From a virus (lineage: Duplodnaviria > Caudoviricetes), in IMG/VR virus record IMGVR_UViG_3300031853_000006, positions 32,001-96,000 of that record: a stretch of DNA of 64,000 bases; one strand, given 5' to 3'. Every line of letters begins with the position of its first letter. The stretch's first letter is position 1. Shown here piece by piece: positions 31,947 through 49,661 of this stretch. The position numbers and the translations under genes were made by a program. The notes beneath the pieces were generated by a model. That model had not been told where the DNA came from and made no database searches. It was given only the letters and a program-made list of their open reading frames with translations.

Positions 31947-32660
31947 TTATCGATAAAGCACGCCTGAATAATTAGGAGTGCTGATATTTGTTACGCCGTC
32001 CATTCGGTCTGCTATCCACATATTGGAATTCAAGTCTGTTATCACATCACTACATTGCCATTGAGGATAAGCTCCGTATATCTGTGACCCTGTTGTGATG
32101 CCTATACGGTAAGTGCTTACTTTGAATGATGATCCTGGATTATCATGATTGTATATCTTAGTACTGGAGCTCGTCTGATTTGCAAGCAATGTAAGGCTTG
32201 ACGAGCTATTGAAAGTTGCCCAATCTACAAAACTAAGAGGAACCTCAGTCTTACTAGCAGTGCTTAACTCTCCCGTCAAGTAAAGTGATCCTGTAATGGG
32301 ACGTATTACTGACACATAGCTTGTATAATCAGTGTTGTAATTACAACCAAACTGCACAGAATCAGCATCTTCTATGAATCTGTATGCTACGTCCCGATCG
32401 GGTGAGAGAGATATGCAGGTCTGCCCATACCAAATCATCGAAGTATGCAGATCTAATGGTTGGTAAGCAGATGAGGCGATCGTCACTGAAGGTGTTATCG
32501 ACGTATTAAAGTGTATGATAAGTAGGTCACCCTTATGCAAGTTTGTGAGCGTACAACTAGCCCCTCCTGGCCTAATTATCGCTGACGCAATCGGGAGCGC
32601 AAGCGTTATTATTCCGCCCCCTCCTGAAGAGCTATCTTGGTTTGAAATAATTGTACTCAT
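31947..32660 (-). CDS. Putative adhesin/tip protein (MST...GGG family)
   Basis: S/T/Y-rich beta protein; leader is an inverted duplicate of the 32794 leader. Confidence 0.5.
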   Translation of the reverse strand: MSTIISNQDSSSGGGGIITLALPIASAIIRPGGASCTLTNLHKGDLLIIHFNTSITPSVTIASSAYQPLDLHTSMIWYGQTCISLSPDRDVAYRFIEDADSVQFGCNYNTDYTSYVSVIRPITGSLYLTGELSTASKTEVPLSFVDWATFNSSSSLTLLANQTSSSTKIYNHDNPGSSFKVSTYRIGITTGSQIYGAYPQWQCSDVITDLNSNMWIADRMDGVTNISTPNYSGVLYR

Positions 32661-44508: not shown

Positions 44509-45495
44509 TTACTCGACTTCATTGGTGTATTCGTATTCATCTAAATAATCCGTCGTGATATAATCATACCTCTTTTTCATCTCAATCACGTTGTCTCTTG
44601 AATTGACTTTCCGCAACCCCTCTTCCAATCTCCAATATACGTCATACATGCCCTCTTTCACAAGTTTCACAGACAGCGACTTAAGAAGTTCTGGACTAGC
44701 TAATGACCTCGGGACTACACATTTGAAAGAATCAATTCCAATTGTATTCAAAGCCTCGCCCATCAACTTAGAATAATAATTTGGATTCATATAGTTGCCT
44801 CTCGTGCCGAAGTCCGCAAGATAAATAACACCTTGCTTCCGTTCAAACCGCAAAACTTGATATAATATCCCATCATCGACTAATCCAACAGAAGTATGAA
44901 TCTTCCCGAATTTAGGACAAACACGTTGCCCATATCGCTTCAAAAACTCAACACTCGCCCTTTCTTTCAATACGTAGACCTGCATGTGTTCTTCTTCAAT
45001 TCTAAATAAAGGGCCATCTGGGTTCGGCAAAGTCTTGAGAGGGAATTCAGTCAGTATCGTCTGTGTGAACTTATCCTTAATTGTAGTTGATAAACTTTCA
45101 GATTTCTTGAGTTTCTTTATATTGTCTACTCCATACTTACGCTGTAAGGTTTCAACTCCTTTCCGATAGATTTCAGGAGATTGCATCGCGTAGTCAACTC
45201 CGAATTTCTTTTGCATTGTCGCTTTTGCTTTCTCTCTTGCTTCTGGATTATTACCAGGGGCCTTCATTCCATATTTCTTCATACTAGTTTCCTGCGTACG
45301 CTTAACTCTGCAAGCATACGAACACGCAACCGGAGGCCGCTTCAAGTTATCATCATTAGTAACTAAGTATCTCTTACCACAAACAGGACAGTTCATATAG
45401 TGAGGTTCCTTACAGTATTTTTGAGAAGCTGTTTTAGGTATGAAAGGCTTTCCGCAGAATTCACAAATCTTCTCCTTTTTGAAATCATCTTCCAT
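44509..45495 (-). CDS. Degenerate homing-endonuclease-family protein 3 (Zn ribbons and KYG repeats, no clear nuclease motif)
   Basis: CEFCGK.F.P....QKYC...H...CPVCG as in paralogues; own TTGACT-17-TATAAT promoter at 45558-45586 (-). Confidence 0.65.
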   Translation of the reverse strand: MEDDFKKEKICEFCGKPFIPKTASQKYCKEPHYMNCPVCGKRYLVTNDDNLKRPPVACSYACRVKRTQETSMKKYGMKAPGNNPEAREKAKATMQKKFGVDYAMQSPEIYRKGVETLQRKYGVDNIKKLKKSESLSTTIKDKFTQTILTEFPLKTLPNPDGPLFRIEEEHMQVYVLKERASVEFLKRYGQRVCPKFGKIHTSVGLVDDGILYQVLRFERKQGVIYLADFGTRGNYMNPNYYSKLMGEALNTIGIDSFKCVVPRSLASPELLKSLSVKLVKEGMYDVYWRLEEGLRKVNSRDNVIEMKKRYDYITTDYLDEYEYTNEVE

Positions 45496-45647
45496 GTGGT
45501 CACACTTCCTTTCCGGTTTTAGAGCCATGTGGTGCTGTCATGTGATTAGTTGTTTTCATTATAATATAGTTTAGTCGAAAAGTCAATATGTAATCTTAAA
45601 TATTTTCGTAACATCAACATAAATCAAACACCGAAAGGAGAAATCAT

Positions 45648-47022
45648 ATGTTTACACCTTTACACATGGGTGAGGGTGCCCCGCATATTCAGTGATGAGT
45701 GTGTGCTACTCGGGTTAACTGCTTTGAATTCCTAAGAGCCTCAGTCGCTACAACGTAGATTGAAAAGTCAAGCGTGAATGCCGCGAAAGCAGAAAGAAGA
45801 ATTGAGGATGGCCTAAGGTGAAACAAAAGCCTTGCAGAATTTAAGCATAGTTCTACAAGGTCCTAAGGGTCAATCAACAATGGATGTTTAGCAGCGAAAG
45901 TCCTAAGTTCGTATCACGAATAAGGAACACGTTCAACGATCAGCCCCTTGAGGGGGATGTAGAACCGCAAGCCAATGGCGGAAGAAAAATCCGAGCTCCT
46001 TAGGTATTAAGGATGACGAAATGATCTGAGCTTCACTGAAAGGTGAAGTTGCTCTAAGAGCAGAATACTTCTTGCGAAAGTATTTGAACAATTAACAAAG
46101 TGTACCAATCATATGCTCGGCGTGGATTAACATACCGGTCCCTTCACATAGTAATATGTGTCGACTAACTACATAGAATTGCTGGAACAACCGTAAAGCC
46201 TACTCAGCCACAACGCAGAGATGAAATATGCTCAGACGTGATGGCGGCGAAAGCAGAAAAAATCGAGTAGGATAGGCCAAGGTGAAATACAAGCCAGAAA
46301 AAGTAATCCTGGTCCTAAAGTCCATCTAACAATCGGAAATCAGCAGCCAAGCTCCGAACAGGAGAAGGTTCAACGAGTAAGCAGCCTCGAAATCGCGAGG
46401 ACAGTAATGTAGGTCCTAAGCCTCCGGCAGGACATTATGTACTCTGGTCTATCAAGAAATTGATAGCGGCTCTTGAAAAGGGCGGTGGGAACCTTGCGAA
46501 GTCCCATGAACAATAACGGCATATGTACCTTTAACAACTAACAACTTTGAGATCCGTATCTACGGACTTGACGGAGGCGCTCCAACAGAAAACGCAGACC
46601 TCTTAACACTCTCTACATCAGAAATCGGAGAGATTCAGGAGGAACAAGACGTAATCACCGTACACTACGGAAACGGCATTGTTAAGTTCCCGAGCAAAGT
46701 AACATTTGCAGATGTTGACTGGACACTTAACTGCTATTGCGAGCCGAATGTGCTCGGAGCTCTGAGAGATTGGAGAAAGCAGGTGTATGATCCTGATACG
46801 GAACGTATGGGATTGCCTACATCGTACATGCGTACTGTATACTTCATCCGTTATGATGCTTCTGGCCGTCAGGCAAGGGACATCATCAAGTGCCCGGGTA
46901 CCTGGATCAGGGGATTAAAGAACGGAAACATGAACCAGGAAGGTGGCTCGATTGTTCAGGCCTCCGTAACGCTGGTCATCTCAAAAGCAACTTACATGAC
47001 AGGATCACAGATTCCGTCATAA
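45648..47022 (+). CDS. Tail tube protein (T4 gp19-like), spliced: exons 45648-45671, ~46101-46127, 46519-47022 (~184 aa)
   Basis: AAAGGAG RBS plus MFTPLHMG; exon 3 has YVPLTTNNFEIRI...VHYGNGIVKFPSK...DW..QVYDP.T..MG. Confidence 0.8.
45672..46100 (+). ncRNA. Group I intron 1 (ORF-less) in the tail tube gene
   Basis: P1 GGGU/GCCC with U-G pair; P AACTGCT, Q TTAGCAGC, R GTTCAACGATCA, S ATGATCT (P7 GATCA/TGATC); 3' end uncertain by 2-3 nt. Confidence 0.85.
46128..46518 (+). ncRNA. Group I intron 2 (ORF-less) in the tail tube gene
   Basis: P1 GGAU/GUCC; P AATTGCTGGAA, Q AATCAGCAGCC, R GTTCAACGAGTA, S ATGTACTCT (P7 GAGTA/TACTC); starts TAA, ends in G and restores the frame. Confidence 0.9.
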
Positions 47023-47042: not shown

Positions 47043-47076
47043 AAAGGCCTGACTCGAAACAGAGCCAGGCCTTTTC
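47043..47076. terminator. Bidirectional terminator
   Basis: AAAGGCCTG...CAGGCCTTT between convergent genes. Confidence 0.75.
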
Positions 47077-47078
47077 TA

Positions 47079-48740
47079 TTATCTTTTCCATTCAAAAACC
47101 ATCTGGCCGCAGTCATAAACGGATCGCCAACCGGATCTAATCATCAGTGCTTCATTAGAAGTACCTTTTCCGTAGTTTGTATGAAAAAGTTGATCAAAAC
47201 CTCGTTGACGCAATAAATTATCAGTTACGTATTCAACACCTCTTGACCAGACCTTTGCGGGACTTGATGTATGATGTAAGGACATACCAATCTTTTCATA
47301 TACTTCTCCATTGAATTTTGCTCTATCGCAATAACTGATGATAGATTCAGGATTTACTTCTTTCAAGAACTTTTGGAACATTTTAGAAGCTCCCCCTACG
47401 ACTTGATGCTTAGAGTCTGTACACAGTCGTAAAAGTTCCCATTCATAATTTTTATTATATCGAGGTTTGCCAAAAGTCATTACGCTCAGTAACTCACCTT
47501 GATAGAATAGTGCGTAGGCGTACTTAGCACCTCTCGCATCTCCTTGAATATGGTTACGTTGAATGAATTCAGTAACATCTTTAGGATCCACAGATTTAAC
47601 TTCACATCTCCTAGCATATATTTTTTCTTTTGGCAACACTAAGTTAAGAACTTTTTCTCTTTCATCCCAATCAAATACATGAATACATCTATAGCCATTG
47701 TCCTGTGCTAACCTTGATCTCTCAATGTGATACCTAGGATCTTTTCCTACAGACTCCCAGTGGTTAGGCAGGTCTGAATGAGTATAGGACGGATCAATCT
47801 CAACTACTATATTAGTTCCAAGCACTCGCATATCAAACCATTTACCATCAATATATTCTTCTTCCTTCACTTTAACTCCATTACTTTCCAAGAATTCCAT
47901 GAATTCTTGATTGACCTTTGATGACCTACCTGTTCTGTTTTCTAGCATAGCTTGTCGTGCCTTTTCTTGACTTTCAGGAAGTTGCAAAGTGCATTTTACT
48001 CCATATCTTTCTTCGCAAGTCTGCATTGCTTTCTCTCGTGATTCGGGTATCATTCCAGAATAAGGGACGCCATGGTTAGCCATAAGTGTTTCCATCATAG
48101 CAATCTGAACGATTTCGCTCTGTGCCGGATAATTCGTTCCATATTTTTCACGACACGTATCAATGTGCTTTTGTCGTACTTCTTTGCTCTTTTGTACTTC
48201 ACTCATCTTCTTGCGTAGTTCAGGAGATTCATCCGGATTAGTAACTCCGTACCGTTCCATCATAGTTGCTTCTATTTTCTGCCGGAGCACTGGAGAAGCA
48301 GTACCGATACCTCCGTACTTGGATTCTAGAGTTGCTCTTGCCTTCTTATTGGTCTCAGGAATCTTGGCCTTGATCTTCTCAACAGCCTTGTCGTGAAACT
48401 CCTTGACTTGACTCGGATTGCGTACTCCGTATTTCGCTTCTAATGTATCCTGTGCTTTCTGTATTTTTAATTTAGATTCGCACTCTTTGGAACATGTGTA
48501 ACGGACAGCACCGTATTTCTCACTCGGCACTTTCATAGCTATGGGTCTTCCGCAGACTAAGCAATCCAGATAATGAGTGCGTTTGCAATAGCGCTGTCTG
48601 CTCCCGTTACGTCCTTCTCCTACAAACAACTTCTTACAAAGCGGACACTCTTTGACTTTCGGAGTATCTTTAGTAACTCCAGAATAGTTATAATCATCAG
48701 CAGAATATACTTTTTGCATAATTTCTTCGTGAGATAGCAT
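47079..48740 (-). CDS. Free-standing homing-endonuclease-like protein 4 (nuclease plus GNAT/Mom-like)
   Basis: FDMRV...VEIDPSYTH; NHIQG...WELLRLC...GGASK...YDCG. Confidence 0.75.
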   Translation of the reverse strand: MLSHEEIMQKVYSADDYNYSGVTKDTPKVKECPLCKKLFVGEGRNGSRQRYCKRTHYLDCLVCGRPIAMKVPSEKYGAVRYTCSKECESKLKIQKAQDTLEAKYGVRNPSQVKEFHDKAVEKIKAKIPETNKKARATLESKYGGIGTASPVLRQKIEATMMERYGVTNPDESPELRKKMSEVQKSKEVRQKHIDTCREKYGTNYPAQSEIVQIAMMETLMANHGVPYSGMIPESREKAMQTCEERYGVKCTLQLPESQEKARQAMLENRTGRSSKVNQEFMEFLESNGVKVKEEEYIDGKWFDMRVLGTNIVVEIDPSYTHSDLPNHWESVGKDPRYHIERSRLAQDNGYRCIHVFDWDEREKVLNLVLPKEKIYARRCEVKSVDPKDVTEFIQRNHIQGDARGAKYAYALFYQGELLSVMTFGKPRYNKNYEWELLRLCTDSKHQVVGGASKMFQKFLKEVNPESIISYCDRAKFNGEVYEKIGMSLHHTSSPAKVWSRGVEYVTDNLLRQRGFDQLFHTNYGKGTSNEALMIRSGWRSVYDCGQMVFEWKR

Positions 48741-48872
48741 GCTTTGCACCAATCCTTTCTGATAATTATATAACGATTTTAGTATGGTTGACCTAATTAC
48801 GCGGTACACCTTACATCTATACGAACCTTCAATAAGTATACAAAATACCTAACTAAAGGAGGATCAGTACGC

Positions 48873-49661
48873 ATGTTTGATTTCTTGAAGAAAAATGCAG
48901 CTATTGACCCGACTCAGTTTACCGGAGGAGTCATCAAGAAAAAAGAGGTCAATCCGACTAACTGGAACTATTCGGATCATAAGTCATGCAAAGCTGTAGC
49001 AGAGAAATCTCTGCCTGAAAGATTCAGTATCAAGGACAAGTTCGGAAAAGTATACTGCCAGCGATATGGTAACTGCACATCTAACGCTGTTTTAGCATGT
49101 GATGCTTACTATTATCATGACCCAAACGGCACTTGGGAACCGTCAACTGTTTTTACCTATTATAATCAGCGAAAAGCTGACGGAGCATTGAAGGATCCGG
49201 ATGATGGTAGTAATGTAGAATGTGCTCTTGAAGTTACTCGTAAGCTTGGAGCTTGTAACGCAAAAGTATGGCCAAATACAAAACCATACACCAAGAAGCC
49301 GAGTAAGGCTGCTTATGCTAACGGACTTAAAGGCAAAGAGCTTACCAAGTATTATAGAGTTAAATCACTCCTTCAGATTAAGAAGGCACTGGTTGCTGGG
49401 TATCCGGTAGCTATCGCAATGGCGTGGGCATTTGATTACATCGATGAAAATCATGTGCTCAACGATCCGACAGATGAAGCAATCGAGGATTGCGTATCAG
49501 GACACGCAGTAGTAATTGTCGGATATGATGACGAGAAGAAACTCTTCGAGATCAGGAACAGCTGGGGAGAAGGATGGGGCGACCACGGATACGGATTCGT
49601 CACCTATAAAACAATGAAAAAAGCTATCTGGTTCGACGATAGCTACGCTGTAGTCAAGTAG
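48873..49661 (+). CDS. Papain-like (C1) cysteine peptidase
   Basis: Q..GNCTSNA, GHAVVIVGYD, IRNSWG..WG..GY. Confidence 0.9.
   Translation: MFDFLKKNAAIDPTQFTGGVIKKKEVNPTNWNYSDHKSCKAVAEKSLPERFSIKDKFGKVYCQRYGNCTSNAVLACDAYYYHDPNGTWEPSTVFTYYNQRKADGALKDPDDGSNVECALEVTRKLGACNAKVWPNTKPYTKKPSKAAYANGLKGKELTKYYRVKSLLQIKKALVAGYPVAIAMAWAFDYIDENHVLNDPTDEAIEDCVSGHAVVIVGYDDEKKLFEIRNSWGEGWGDHGYGFVTYKTMKKAIWFDDSYAVVK

Follow-up and report, generated by a model that had tools for sequence, protein, structure and literature searches.

A tail tube gene in three exons and its two predicted group I introns in an uncultured bovine-gut myovirus

How can a phage encode its tail tube in a region where gene calling finds little more than a fragment? 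We analysed a stretch of 64,000 nucleotides (nt; the window), positions 32,001 to 96,000 of the viral record IMGVR_UViG_3300031853_000006. This IMG/VR record is 116.9 kb long and is estimated to be 78% complete, and the DNA runs in which the stretch is found are bovine-gut metagenomes. Within 45648-47022 of the window, calling of open reading frames (ORFs) gives only one ORF, of 90 amino acids (aa; 46750-47022). An earlier note on this DNA had remarked on that sole fragment and had proposed that a tail tube gene is hidden there because two group I introns that have no ORF, one on each side of a micro-exon, interrupt it. Homologues, an intron family profile and covariation all bear out this proposal. 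With a probability that we put at about 0.8, an uncultured bovine-gut myovirus has its tail tube gene in this region, and two ORF-less introns, both group I and of one family, interrupt it. The coordinates of the features are collected in Table 1.

A tail tube gene in three exons

We found that 45648-47022 can be read as one tail tube gene in three exons, MFTPLHMG / TNHMLGVD / AYVPL…. Exon 1 encodes MFTPLHMG from the ATG at 45648, and read-through from it meets in-frame stops after 15 codons. The codons for TNHMLGVD lie at 46104-46127, and the frame of exon 3 opens at 46519 with AYVPLTTNNFEIRIY. Exon 3 matched the profile phrog_4542, 'tail tube protein' (E = 6.3e-12, profile positions 25-180 of 214). 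The match begins at profile position 25, which indicates that approximately 24 N-terminal residues are missing from exon 3.

Intact homologues are 181-183 aa long and have the N-terminus MF.PL.MG-TNHMLGVD-.YVPL; 70 of them start MF.P[LI]..G[TV]… (consensus MFTPLYMGTNHMLGVDNYVPLTTNNFEIRIY). Two related loci without introns, L001 and L130, were aligned with the exons of the window. L001 reads FSPIHMG-TNHMLGVD-AYVPL, and L130 reads FTPLHMG-TNHMLGVD-AYVPL. L130 (90% identical) matches all three exons joined, with no Cys at the first junction and with Ala at the second. Because these intact intronless relatives read the joined sequence, homology confirms the three-exon gene model. The predicted spliced product is a tube protein of 183 aa that starts MFTPLHMG-TNHMLGVD-AYVPL (expected N-terminus MFTPLHMGTNHMLGVDAYVPL). 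The full tube of the earlier note, put there at ~184 aa, stands; without a Cys residue discussed below it is one residue shorter.

The micro-exon encodes the same amino acids as the corresponding DNA of L001, L130 and others, and the DNA differences between these loci are all synonymous. The micro-exon appears to be under selection as coding sequence, because it differs from its relatives only at synonymous positions. The exon 3 protein of L001 is 100% identical to that of the window, and the DNA is only 83% identical (46519-47019 compared with L001:1752-2255). This identity is a sign that the tube protein is under very strong purifying selection.

Exon 3 has 737 database homologues, and the closest cultured matches (tblastn) are annotated tail tubes of Bacillus phage SP-15 (32% identity) and Listeria phage LIS04 (30% identity), both large Firmicutes myoviruses. 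A Pfam search of the tube protein gave no family at E <= 0.01, and the best match in a sequence-profile search of the PDB, chain 9ev2_T1, was not significant (E = 0.085). We made an AlphaFold model from an intact homologue (P0004) and used it for fold-level matching only; its mean pLDDT (predicted local distance difference test score) was 56.8, and its N-terminal 24 residues were below 50. This model matched the tube of Klebsiella phage KP1 (9ev2_T1, E = 1e-6) and T4 gp19 (5w5f_A, E = 5e-6, template modelling scores 0.55/0.60). The best structural matches of this low-confidence model were all contractile-tail tubes. The description 'gp19-like' in the earlier note appears to hold at the level of the fold.

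Two ORF-less introns of one family

To judge from their sequences, both inserts are group I introns that have no ORF and belong to a single phage intron family. Neither contains an ORF of more than 55 aa. A permissive search with the group I model RF00028 gave 37.3 bits for intron 1 (E = 1e-7, 45662-46048) and 23.5 bits for intron 2 (E = 1.4e-3, 46118-46466). The alignments run end to end over both inserts and cover the full model (1-253). A search of the whole window genome with RF00028 gave a single weak match, to part of intron 1.

Relatives provided stronger evidence. We fetched 47 viral and 80 metagenome loci encoding the tube, mapped their interruptions by spliced profile alignment and counted introns from the DNA. 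The interruptions yielded 29 distinct group I sequences from relatives. An nhmmer profile of these 29 introns, from which the window's own introns were excluded, matched 45676-46092 (E = 1.8e-73) and 46136-46513 (E = 5.1e-58). These were the only matches in the 116.9-kb genome. Four peripheral sequence motifs that the earlier note had seen in the two introns are all present in both, and they are found family-wide.

We found that the two introns also share a conserved structure with their relatives. In an alignment of 14 introns, the consensus fold contained P2, P3, P6, P8 and P9; P4, P5 and the pseudoknotted P7 were added by hand. In this alignment 87.7% of cells were paired, compared with 33-41% when the partners were slid. 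Both sides had changed in 39 of the 54 pairs, and none of 500 shuffles reached the observed values. The covariation supports P2-P9, including the P3/P7 pseudoknot. P7 is paired in 14/14 aligned introns; the third pair is C-G, U-A or G-C, and the fourth is U-A or C-G. The partners of the P7 strands listed in Table 1 complete the helix in both introns of the window, which agrees with the earlier view of P7 as non-standard and compensated. Hairpins P7.1/P7.2 between P7 and the 3' strand of P3 are a feature of subgroup IA. Candidate hairpins between the 5' strand of P7 and the 3' strand of P3, read from the sequence and fold, are GCCCCUUGAGGGGG and CCGCAAGCCAAUGGCGG in intron 1 and CCUCGAAAUCGCGAGG in intron 2.

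Several results weigh against this assignment. Rfam at gathering thresholds gave zero matches in the whole window, and both RF00028 scores given above are below the gathering cut-off of 50 bits; a search with group I models thus aligned with both introns and fell short in score. Single-sequence minimum free energy folding was only modestly better than for shuffled sequences (z = -2.5 and -1.1) and was not used as evidence. Finally, the analysis shows the structure of the gene, membership of the intron family, a conserved fold and junctions set by homology; that the introns self-splice, at which bonds they are cut and how they move, we infer from sequence.

The two introns are not each other's closest relatives. 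Their identity is 53.7%, and ranked within each other's sets of relatives they come 17th and 25th, so that the term 'paralogous', used in the earlier note, is true at the family level only. The nearest relatives of intron 1 are introns at the same site, here called site a, in other phages (L050_I1, 74%; L051_I1, 71%). The nearest relative of intron 2 is the second intron of L050 (L050_I2, 72%), which is inserted 24 nt farther downstream in the gene (46128-46518 against L050:591-1029). The two have near-identical cores and different guides: in the window GGUCC has GGAUU as its partner, and in L050 GUUC has GAAU. Intron 2 and L050_I2 look like one lineage that was retargeted within the gene through a change of guide.

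Related sequences are found well beyond the tube genes studied here. By blastn, the intron DNA resembles DNA of Staphylococcus (74 records), Enterococcus and other phages and of Clostridium c-st phages. In a Selenomonas ruminantium plasmid (NC_017078.1) and in Clostridium botulinum phage-plasmids, DNA that bears no annotation is ~70% identical to part of intron 1 (45703-45990) over ~280 nt. Such DNA probably represents unannotated group I introns. The P6/J6-7/P7 core (46330-46380) is found on very many different bovine-gut contigs, with a summed depth of up to ~6000 in one run, and group I introns with a core of this type appear to be abundant in rumen metagenomes. In the contigs of four bovine-gut runs over the locus, there was no exon-exon joint. 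One contig (X2) links 45996 to 46531 through 149 other letters. This contig may be a variant with intron 1 and without intron 2.

Splice junctions of the two introns

According to the mechanism that we propose, the tube gene would be transcribed as a single pre-mRNA. Each intron would fold into a group I core (P1-P9, with the P3/P7 pseudoknot) and would remove itself by two guanosine-dependent transesterifications. The three exons would then be joined to give the mRNA for the 183-aa tube protein. Homology defines what this mRNA must encode, and the question at each junction is which bonds would be cut.

The window DNA at intron 1 reads …AUGGGU/GAGGGUGCCC……AAAGUGU/ACC (slashes mark splice sites), and the mRNA by homology reads …AUG GGU ACC…. 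We compared intron 1 with the other introns at site a; together they are a set of 13 full-length introns plus L132, which shows only its 3' end. In all 14 the exon ends …GGGU and the intron ends …G N/AC, where N is U in 12 and C in 2. P1, formed by exon GGGU and guide GCCC, was found in 12 of the 13 full-length introns by an automated scan, and in the thirteenth (L050) by eye. A cut after the U combined with the invariant G as last intron base would leave one extra base and break the frame (GGGUUACC at junction 1 is a frameshift). Because of this, only two registers give the conserved protein at site a. In register A, the cut is after U45671 and the last intron base is N (U46103). In register B, the cut is after G45670, G46102 is terminal, and N becomes the synonymous third base of the Gly codon. 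Both registers give an identical mRNA with the junction GGGUACC.

We lean towards register B, in which intron 1 would be cut one base upstream of the U·G pair. Our preference moved from register A to register B because of BcISt1, a group B IStron of Bacillus cereus ATCC 10987 with the same …GGG/U layout. BcISt1 splices after …AGGG, and the next U is the first base of the element, as determined by reverse transcription polymerase chain reaction and circle-junction sequencing (Tourasse et al. 2014, PMC4227781). That study ties the upstream cut of BcISt1 to a U·G pair abutting the P1 loop. Read in register B, intron 1 and its 13 relatives at site a would resemble BcISt1 in a 5' exon ending …GGG, an intronic U that pairs with a guide G, a U·G pair beside the P1 loop and a normal terminal G. 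By analogy, intron 1 would be cut after G45670, G46102 would be the terminal base, and U46103 would supply the third base of the Gly codon. In the site-a introns, only 0-1 further pairs follow the U·G pair before a P1 loop of 4-9 nt; most canonical relatives have 1-3, with two exceptions at 0. The invariant G at the 3' end is followed by a variable synonymous pyrimidine that is able to pair with the guide G.

Other points count against this choice of register. A search of plasmids for DNA similarity to IStrons found none, and BcISt1 serves as an analogy, with relatedness to it not shown. IStrons are chimeras with IS200/IS605-type transposases and are ~1.9 kb long, unlike the ORF-less introns of the window (391-432 nt), in which the shift of the cut is itself a prediction. 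The window is alone among the site-a introns in having an in-frame canonical option (G46100, which adds a Cys), and the 3' tail of its intron 1 is ~6 nt longer than those of its relatives and contains an extra GU. The 3' site of intron 1 in the window may differ from that of the family.

Register A, a cut after U45671 with a last base other than G (U46103, after G46102), is possible and would be the less probable route to the same mRNA. It would mean that the family tolerates U, C or A as last base. In the family alignment, the canonical last base (…UGG/) aligns with U or C in the site-a introns and with A in L012_I1 and L129_I1, and the preceding base is G in all. In L012_I2 and L033_I2, where the register is fixed by the invariant residue N25, the terminal G falls in the same alignment column. 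A natural Coxiella group I intron without a terminal G is known, going by the title of Raghavan 2007 as cited in PMC3428280. However, three different terminal bases (U, C and A) are hard to square with a specific guanosine-binding site, and the P7 of these introns is unremarkable. A terminal G followed by the first exon base is a simpler account of an invariant G and a synonymous variable base, and BcISt1 provides a precedent for a one-base shift at the 5' site.

A related irregularity is seen at another site. Intron 1 of L012 (L012:2106-2576) and intron 1 of L129, both at site b, end …GA/CAY, where relatives end …GG/CAY. Either the last base of these introns is A, or the register is shifted by one base, which would give Lys for Asn at residue 10.

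Splicing of intron 1 that is canonical at both ends, with a cut after U45671 and G46100 as terminal base, is improbable, less likely than register A. This was the first of the options in the earlier note for the 3' site (AAAG/TGT). It would produce a 27-nt micro-exon and a 184-aa protein, MFTPLHMG-C-TNHMLGVD…, with the junction GGGUUGUACC. The Cys option is in frame and obeys both group I rules. L038 and L005 end …AAAGU/AC where the window ends …AAAGUGU/AC, and a gain of 2 nt could have created a canonical site with the frame kept. The N-terminal 24 residues are predicted to be disordered in the low-confidence monomer model, and an insertion might be tolerated there. In contrast, no residue stands between G8 and T9 in any of 120 listed homologues, and the closest relatives, L001 and L130, read MG-TNH. 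None of the 13 other site-a introns offers an in-frame G for the Cys option, and all keep exon 1 intact. P10 (ACC with GGU) sets the junction before ACC, and UGU is unable to pair with the guide. The 3' site of intron 1 was thus rightly described before as ambiguous, with P10 pointing to an exon that starts ACC, and the Cys is disfavoured. With it, two lengths change: intron 1 is 432 nt by homology, not ~429 nt (the 391 nt given for intron 2 holds), and the micro-exon, whose existence stands, measures 25 nt in the register that we favour and 24 nt with 46104 as its first base. A length of 27 nt (46101-46127) applies only with the Cys codon.

Taken over the 14 diverged introns at site a, comparison of the sequences makes it fairly probable that this lineage systematically either splices after the G upstream of the U·G pair, a place of cutting mapped so far in group B IStrons only, or ends in U or C in place of the universal terminal G.

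Intron 2 would be canonical at both ends: its 5' site has a U·G pair, and its last base would be G. As its P1 holds two U·G pairs in a row, it can be read in two registers. In one, GAU/…ACG/GCA (46128-46518, terminal G46518), the spliced junction is GAUGCA, encoding Ala. In the other, GAUU/…ACGG/CA (46129-46519, terminal G46519), the junction is GAUUCA, encoding Ser. The four closest homologues, L001 and L130 have Ala at this junction. We regard the Ala register as the reasonably likely one.

Table 1. Positions of exons, predicted introns, pairing elements and flanking genes in the window
Feature	Position	Strand	Basis or remark
Shine-Dalgarno sequence AAAGGAG	45634..45640	+	7 nt 5' of the exon 1 ATG; read from sequence
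Exon 1 (MFTPLHM + GG of Gly8)	45648..45670 (favoured register), or to U45671 (alternative)	+	Matches N-termini of intact homologues
Intron 1, predicted group I, 432 nt, ORF-less, site-a family	45671..46102 (favoured: U45671 first, G46102 terminal); equivalent alternative register 45672-46103, last base U	+	RF00028, family profile, covariation, homologue-set junction
Intron 1 guide	45675..45681	+	GCCC 45678-45681 pairs with exon GGGU (P1, U45671·G45678); GGU 45675-45677 pairs with ACC 46104-46106 (P10)
Intron 1 P7 5' strand GAUCA	45938..45942	+	Partner UGAUC 46022-46026
Micro-exon, U + ACC AAU CAU AUG CUC GGC GUG GAU, encoding TNHMLGVD	46103..46127	+	Homology to L001, L130 and others
Intron 2, predicted group I, 391 nt, ORF-less	46128..46518	+	RF00028, family profile, covariation, register scan; canonical U/…G/ ends
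Intron 2 guide GGUCC	46137..46141	+	Pairs with exon GGAUU (46124-46128), two consecutive U·G pairs; P1 scan
Intron 2 P7 5' strand GAGUA	46375..46379	+	Partner UACUC 46440-46444
Exon 3, 167 codons + stop, tail tube body	46519..47022	+	phrog_4542 match, 737 homologues, fold matches
339-aa DUF7487 gene, homing-endonuclease-like, free-standing, upstream flank	44509..45528	-	PF24308 E = 6e-11; phrog_3339 'homing endonuclease' E = 7e-10
576-aa DUF7487 gene, homing-endonuclease-like, free-standing, downstream flank	47079..48809	-	PF24308 E = 1e-19; phrog_3339 E = 6e-82; phrog_559 'HNH endonuclease' E = 4e-53

Introns and neighbouring genes across the clade

We found that the number and positions of introns vary widely among related tube genes. 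Of 123 related loci (duplicates between the collections still included), 87 have no intron, 28 have one, seven have two and one (L124, on a 2078-nt contig) has three. The 36 intron-bearing loci use at least 10 sites, group I and group II together, in the first 90 nt; ~70% of the loci are intronless. The group I sites, at least 9 of them, are at coding positions 23/24, 30, 35, 48/49 (window only), 51-53, 62/63, 72, 75 and 89/90. An ORF-less group II intron of ~570 nt is present at positions 58-61, after codon 20, in L045 (2426-3000), L041, L104, L115, L121 and L123. It starts GUGCGAC and ends GACAU, and it matches RF02004 (63 bits) and RF00029 (57.5 bits), both above gathering. Other micro-exons occur in L033 (24 nt), L012 (45 nt) and L040 (~54 nt); L129 and L050 also have two introns. 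In these two-intron genes and in L124 the introns lie at different sites, and every gene has micro-exons of its own, ~24-54 nt long.

Because ~70% of the related tube genes are intronless, including that of the identical-protein twin L001, the introns appear to be dispensable for tube function. Close relatives do not carry the same introns: none is present in L001 or L130, and two, at site a and at position 72, are present in L050. The introns cluster by insertion site. Because of this variation, the clustering by site and the very conserved target, the sequences are best read as those of selfish mobile elements that colonise a conserved 5' stretch, and not as regulators.

The alternative that double splicing is an evolved regulatory device, delaying or tuning tube production, is quite unlikely. 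Exon skipping might give an in-frame variant without TNHMLGVD, as skipping of the window's micro-exon would keep the frame, and exons are indeed skipped in Twort orf142 and in Coxiella 23S rRNA, where tandem group I introns enclose short exons (PMC10136302). However, ~70% of related phages make the same protein from an intronless gene, and close relatives differ in the number and position of introns (none in L001 and L130, another second site in L050). That pattern of variation fits the gain and loss of selfish elements. In addition, the two introns use unlike guides (GCCC and GGUCC), a situation that, according to PMC10136302, promotes inclusion of the exon. The suggestion in the earlier note that splicing is a timing control point finds no support here.

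We give very little credence to a reading in which intron 1 is not accurately removed and the tube is translated from an internal start (as MLGVD… from the ATG at 46113, for which splicing of intron 2 would suffice, or as the 90-aa ORF from the GTG at 46750, with exon 1 a relic): removal of intron 2 puts the ATG at 46113 in frame with exon 3, and gene callers often start relatives at the Met of MLGVD, but such 'MLGVD…' relatives (L130, L131) are intact with MF.PL.MGTNH upstream in frame, the amino acids of exon 1 are conserved in all 13 full-length site-a loci, exon 1 has the only good Shine-Dalgarno sequence (none comparable to AAAGGAG is read in front of 46113), and the 90-aa ORF is without 77 conserved residues of exon 3, many of them invariant. 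Proteins starting 'MLGVD…' had also been considered as a marker of intron-bearing genes; this was dropped, as L130 and L131 have mis-called starts.

Genes on both sides of the tube gene may bear on how the introns spread. Free-standing DUF7487 genes that resemble homing endonucleases flank it in the window (Table 1), and DUF7487 or 'homing endonuclease' genes flank the tube gene in 69 of the 81 loci with enough flanking sequence. Collaborative homing, in which ORF-less group I introns stand with adjacent free-standing homing endonucleases, has been described in two phages (review PMC3984707). The window has this layout: ORF-less introns in a conserved gene directly flanked by endonuclease-like genes (DUF7487, phrog_3339). 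Unlike in those phages, the endonuclease activity and its target site are putative, and the genes adjoin intronless tube genes almost as often. They flank 22 of the 24 intron-bearing genes and 47 of the 57 intronless ones, and this lack of intron specificity counts against a role in intron spread. Spread of the introns was possibly helped in trans by the products of these predicted endonuclease genes, and collaborative homing is a plausible, putative mode.

Transcription signals around the locus were scanned as well. There was no convincing promoter on the + strand directly upstream of the tube gene. A promoter-like site on the - strand (45558-45586; TTGACT, a 17-nt spacer and TATAAT, 11/12 matches) lies upstream of the gene at 44509-45528, in the gap before the tube gene. 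At 47043-47074, 3' of the tube stop codon, a 13-base-pair inverted repeat with one mismatch (AAAGGCCTGACTC … GAGCCAGGCCTTT) followed by a T-rich run was seen by eye. A terminator scan did not flag this hairpin and T-run, which may be a terminator. A gene for a papain-like cysteine peptidase (48873-49661; PF00112, E = 5.6e-10) is just downstream of the second endonuclease-like gene.

Parts of this arrangement are known from other systems. In orf142 of Staphylococcus phage Twort, which has three group I introns, an exon of 23 nt separates the second intron from the third, and exon skipping occurs (PMC10136302). Like orf142, the gene in the window is a phage protein-coding gene in which several related, ORF-less group I introns flank a micro-exon. 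Unlike orf142, its host gene is a tail tube of an uncultured rumen myovirus, the introns are 54% identical, one junction is non-canonical, and splicing is predicted. In Coxiella 23S rRNA, tandem group I introns surround a 34-nt micro-exon, with exon skipping (PMC10136302). The two loci share tandem group I introns that flank a micro-exon, one member having a non-canonical terminal position. In contrast to the phage protein-coding gene and single intron family of the window, the Coxiella introns are in a bacterial rRNA gene and belong to different subgroups.

Group I introns in phage tail tube genes have also been reported, in prophages of the B. cereus group (BwK1 of B. weihenstephanensis KBAB4, and B. 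cereus B4264; Tourasse and Kolstø 2008, PMC2504315). The BwK1-type tail tube intron was reported to be similar to an intron of Clostridium phage c-st (PMC2504315), and c-st also matches intron 1 of the window. Those prophages have a single intron, whereas the window has two and its relatives have up to three, at no fewer than 9 group I sites in 90 nt. Thus, a group I intron in a tail tube gene, tandem introns around micro-exons, a missing terminal G and a 5' cut after G are already known. What is new is the host, an uncultured clade of rumen and gut myoviruses, together with the density of insertion sites and a diverged, ORF-less family that shares a rule-breaking junction.

Automatic gene calling misses an essential structural gene here, and similar cases are common in the clade. 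Approximately 30% of related rumen and human-gut phages have one to three introns in the first 90 nt, and their tube genes often look broken or truncated in viromes. The family of intron 1 provides 14 natural variants of a junction that is not canonical at both ends; at 370-530 nt each, they are short enough for testing in vitro. If our reading of site a is correct, the choice of 5' or 3' site by these ribozymes follows a non-textbook rule, and natural variants of such diverse sequence would lend themselves to work on how splice sites are selected. Flanked by free-standing endonuclease-like genes, a mere 90 nt of this locus accommodate at least 9 group I sites and one group II site. With sister introns apparently retargeted 24 nt apart, the locus would document in little space how introns are gained, lost and retargeted in nature.

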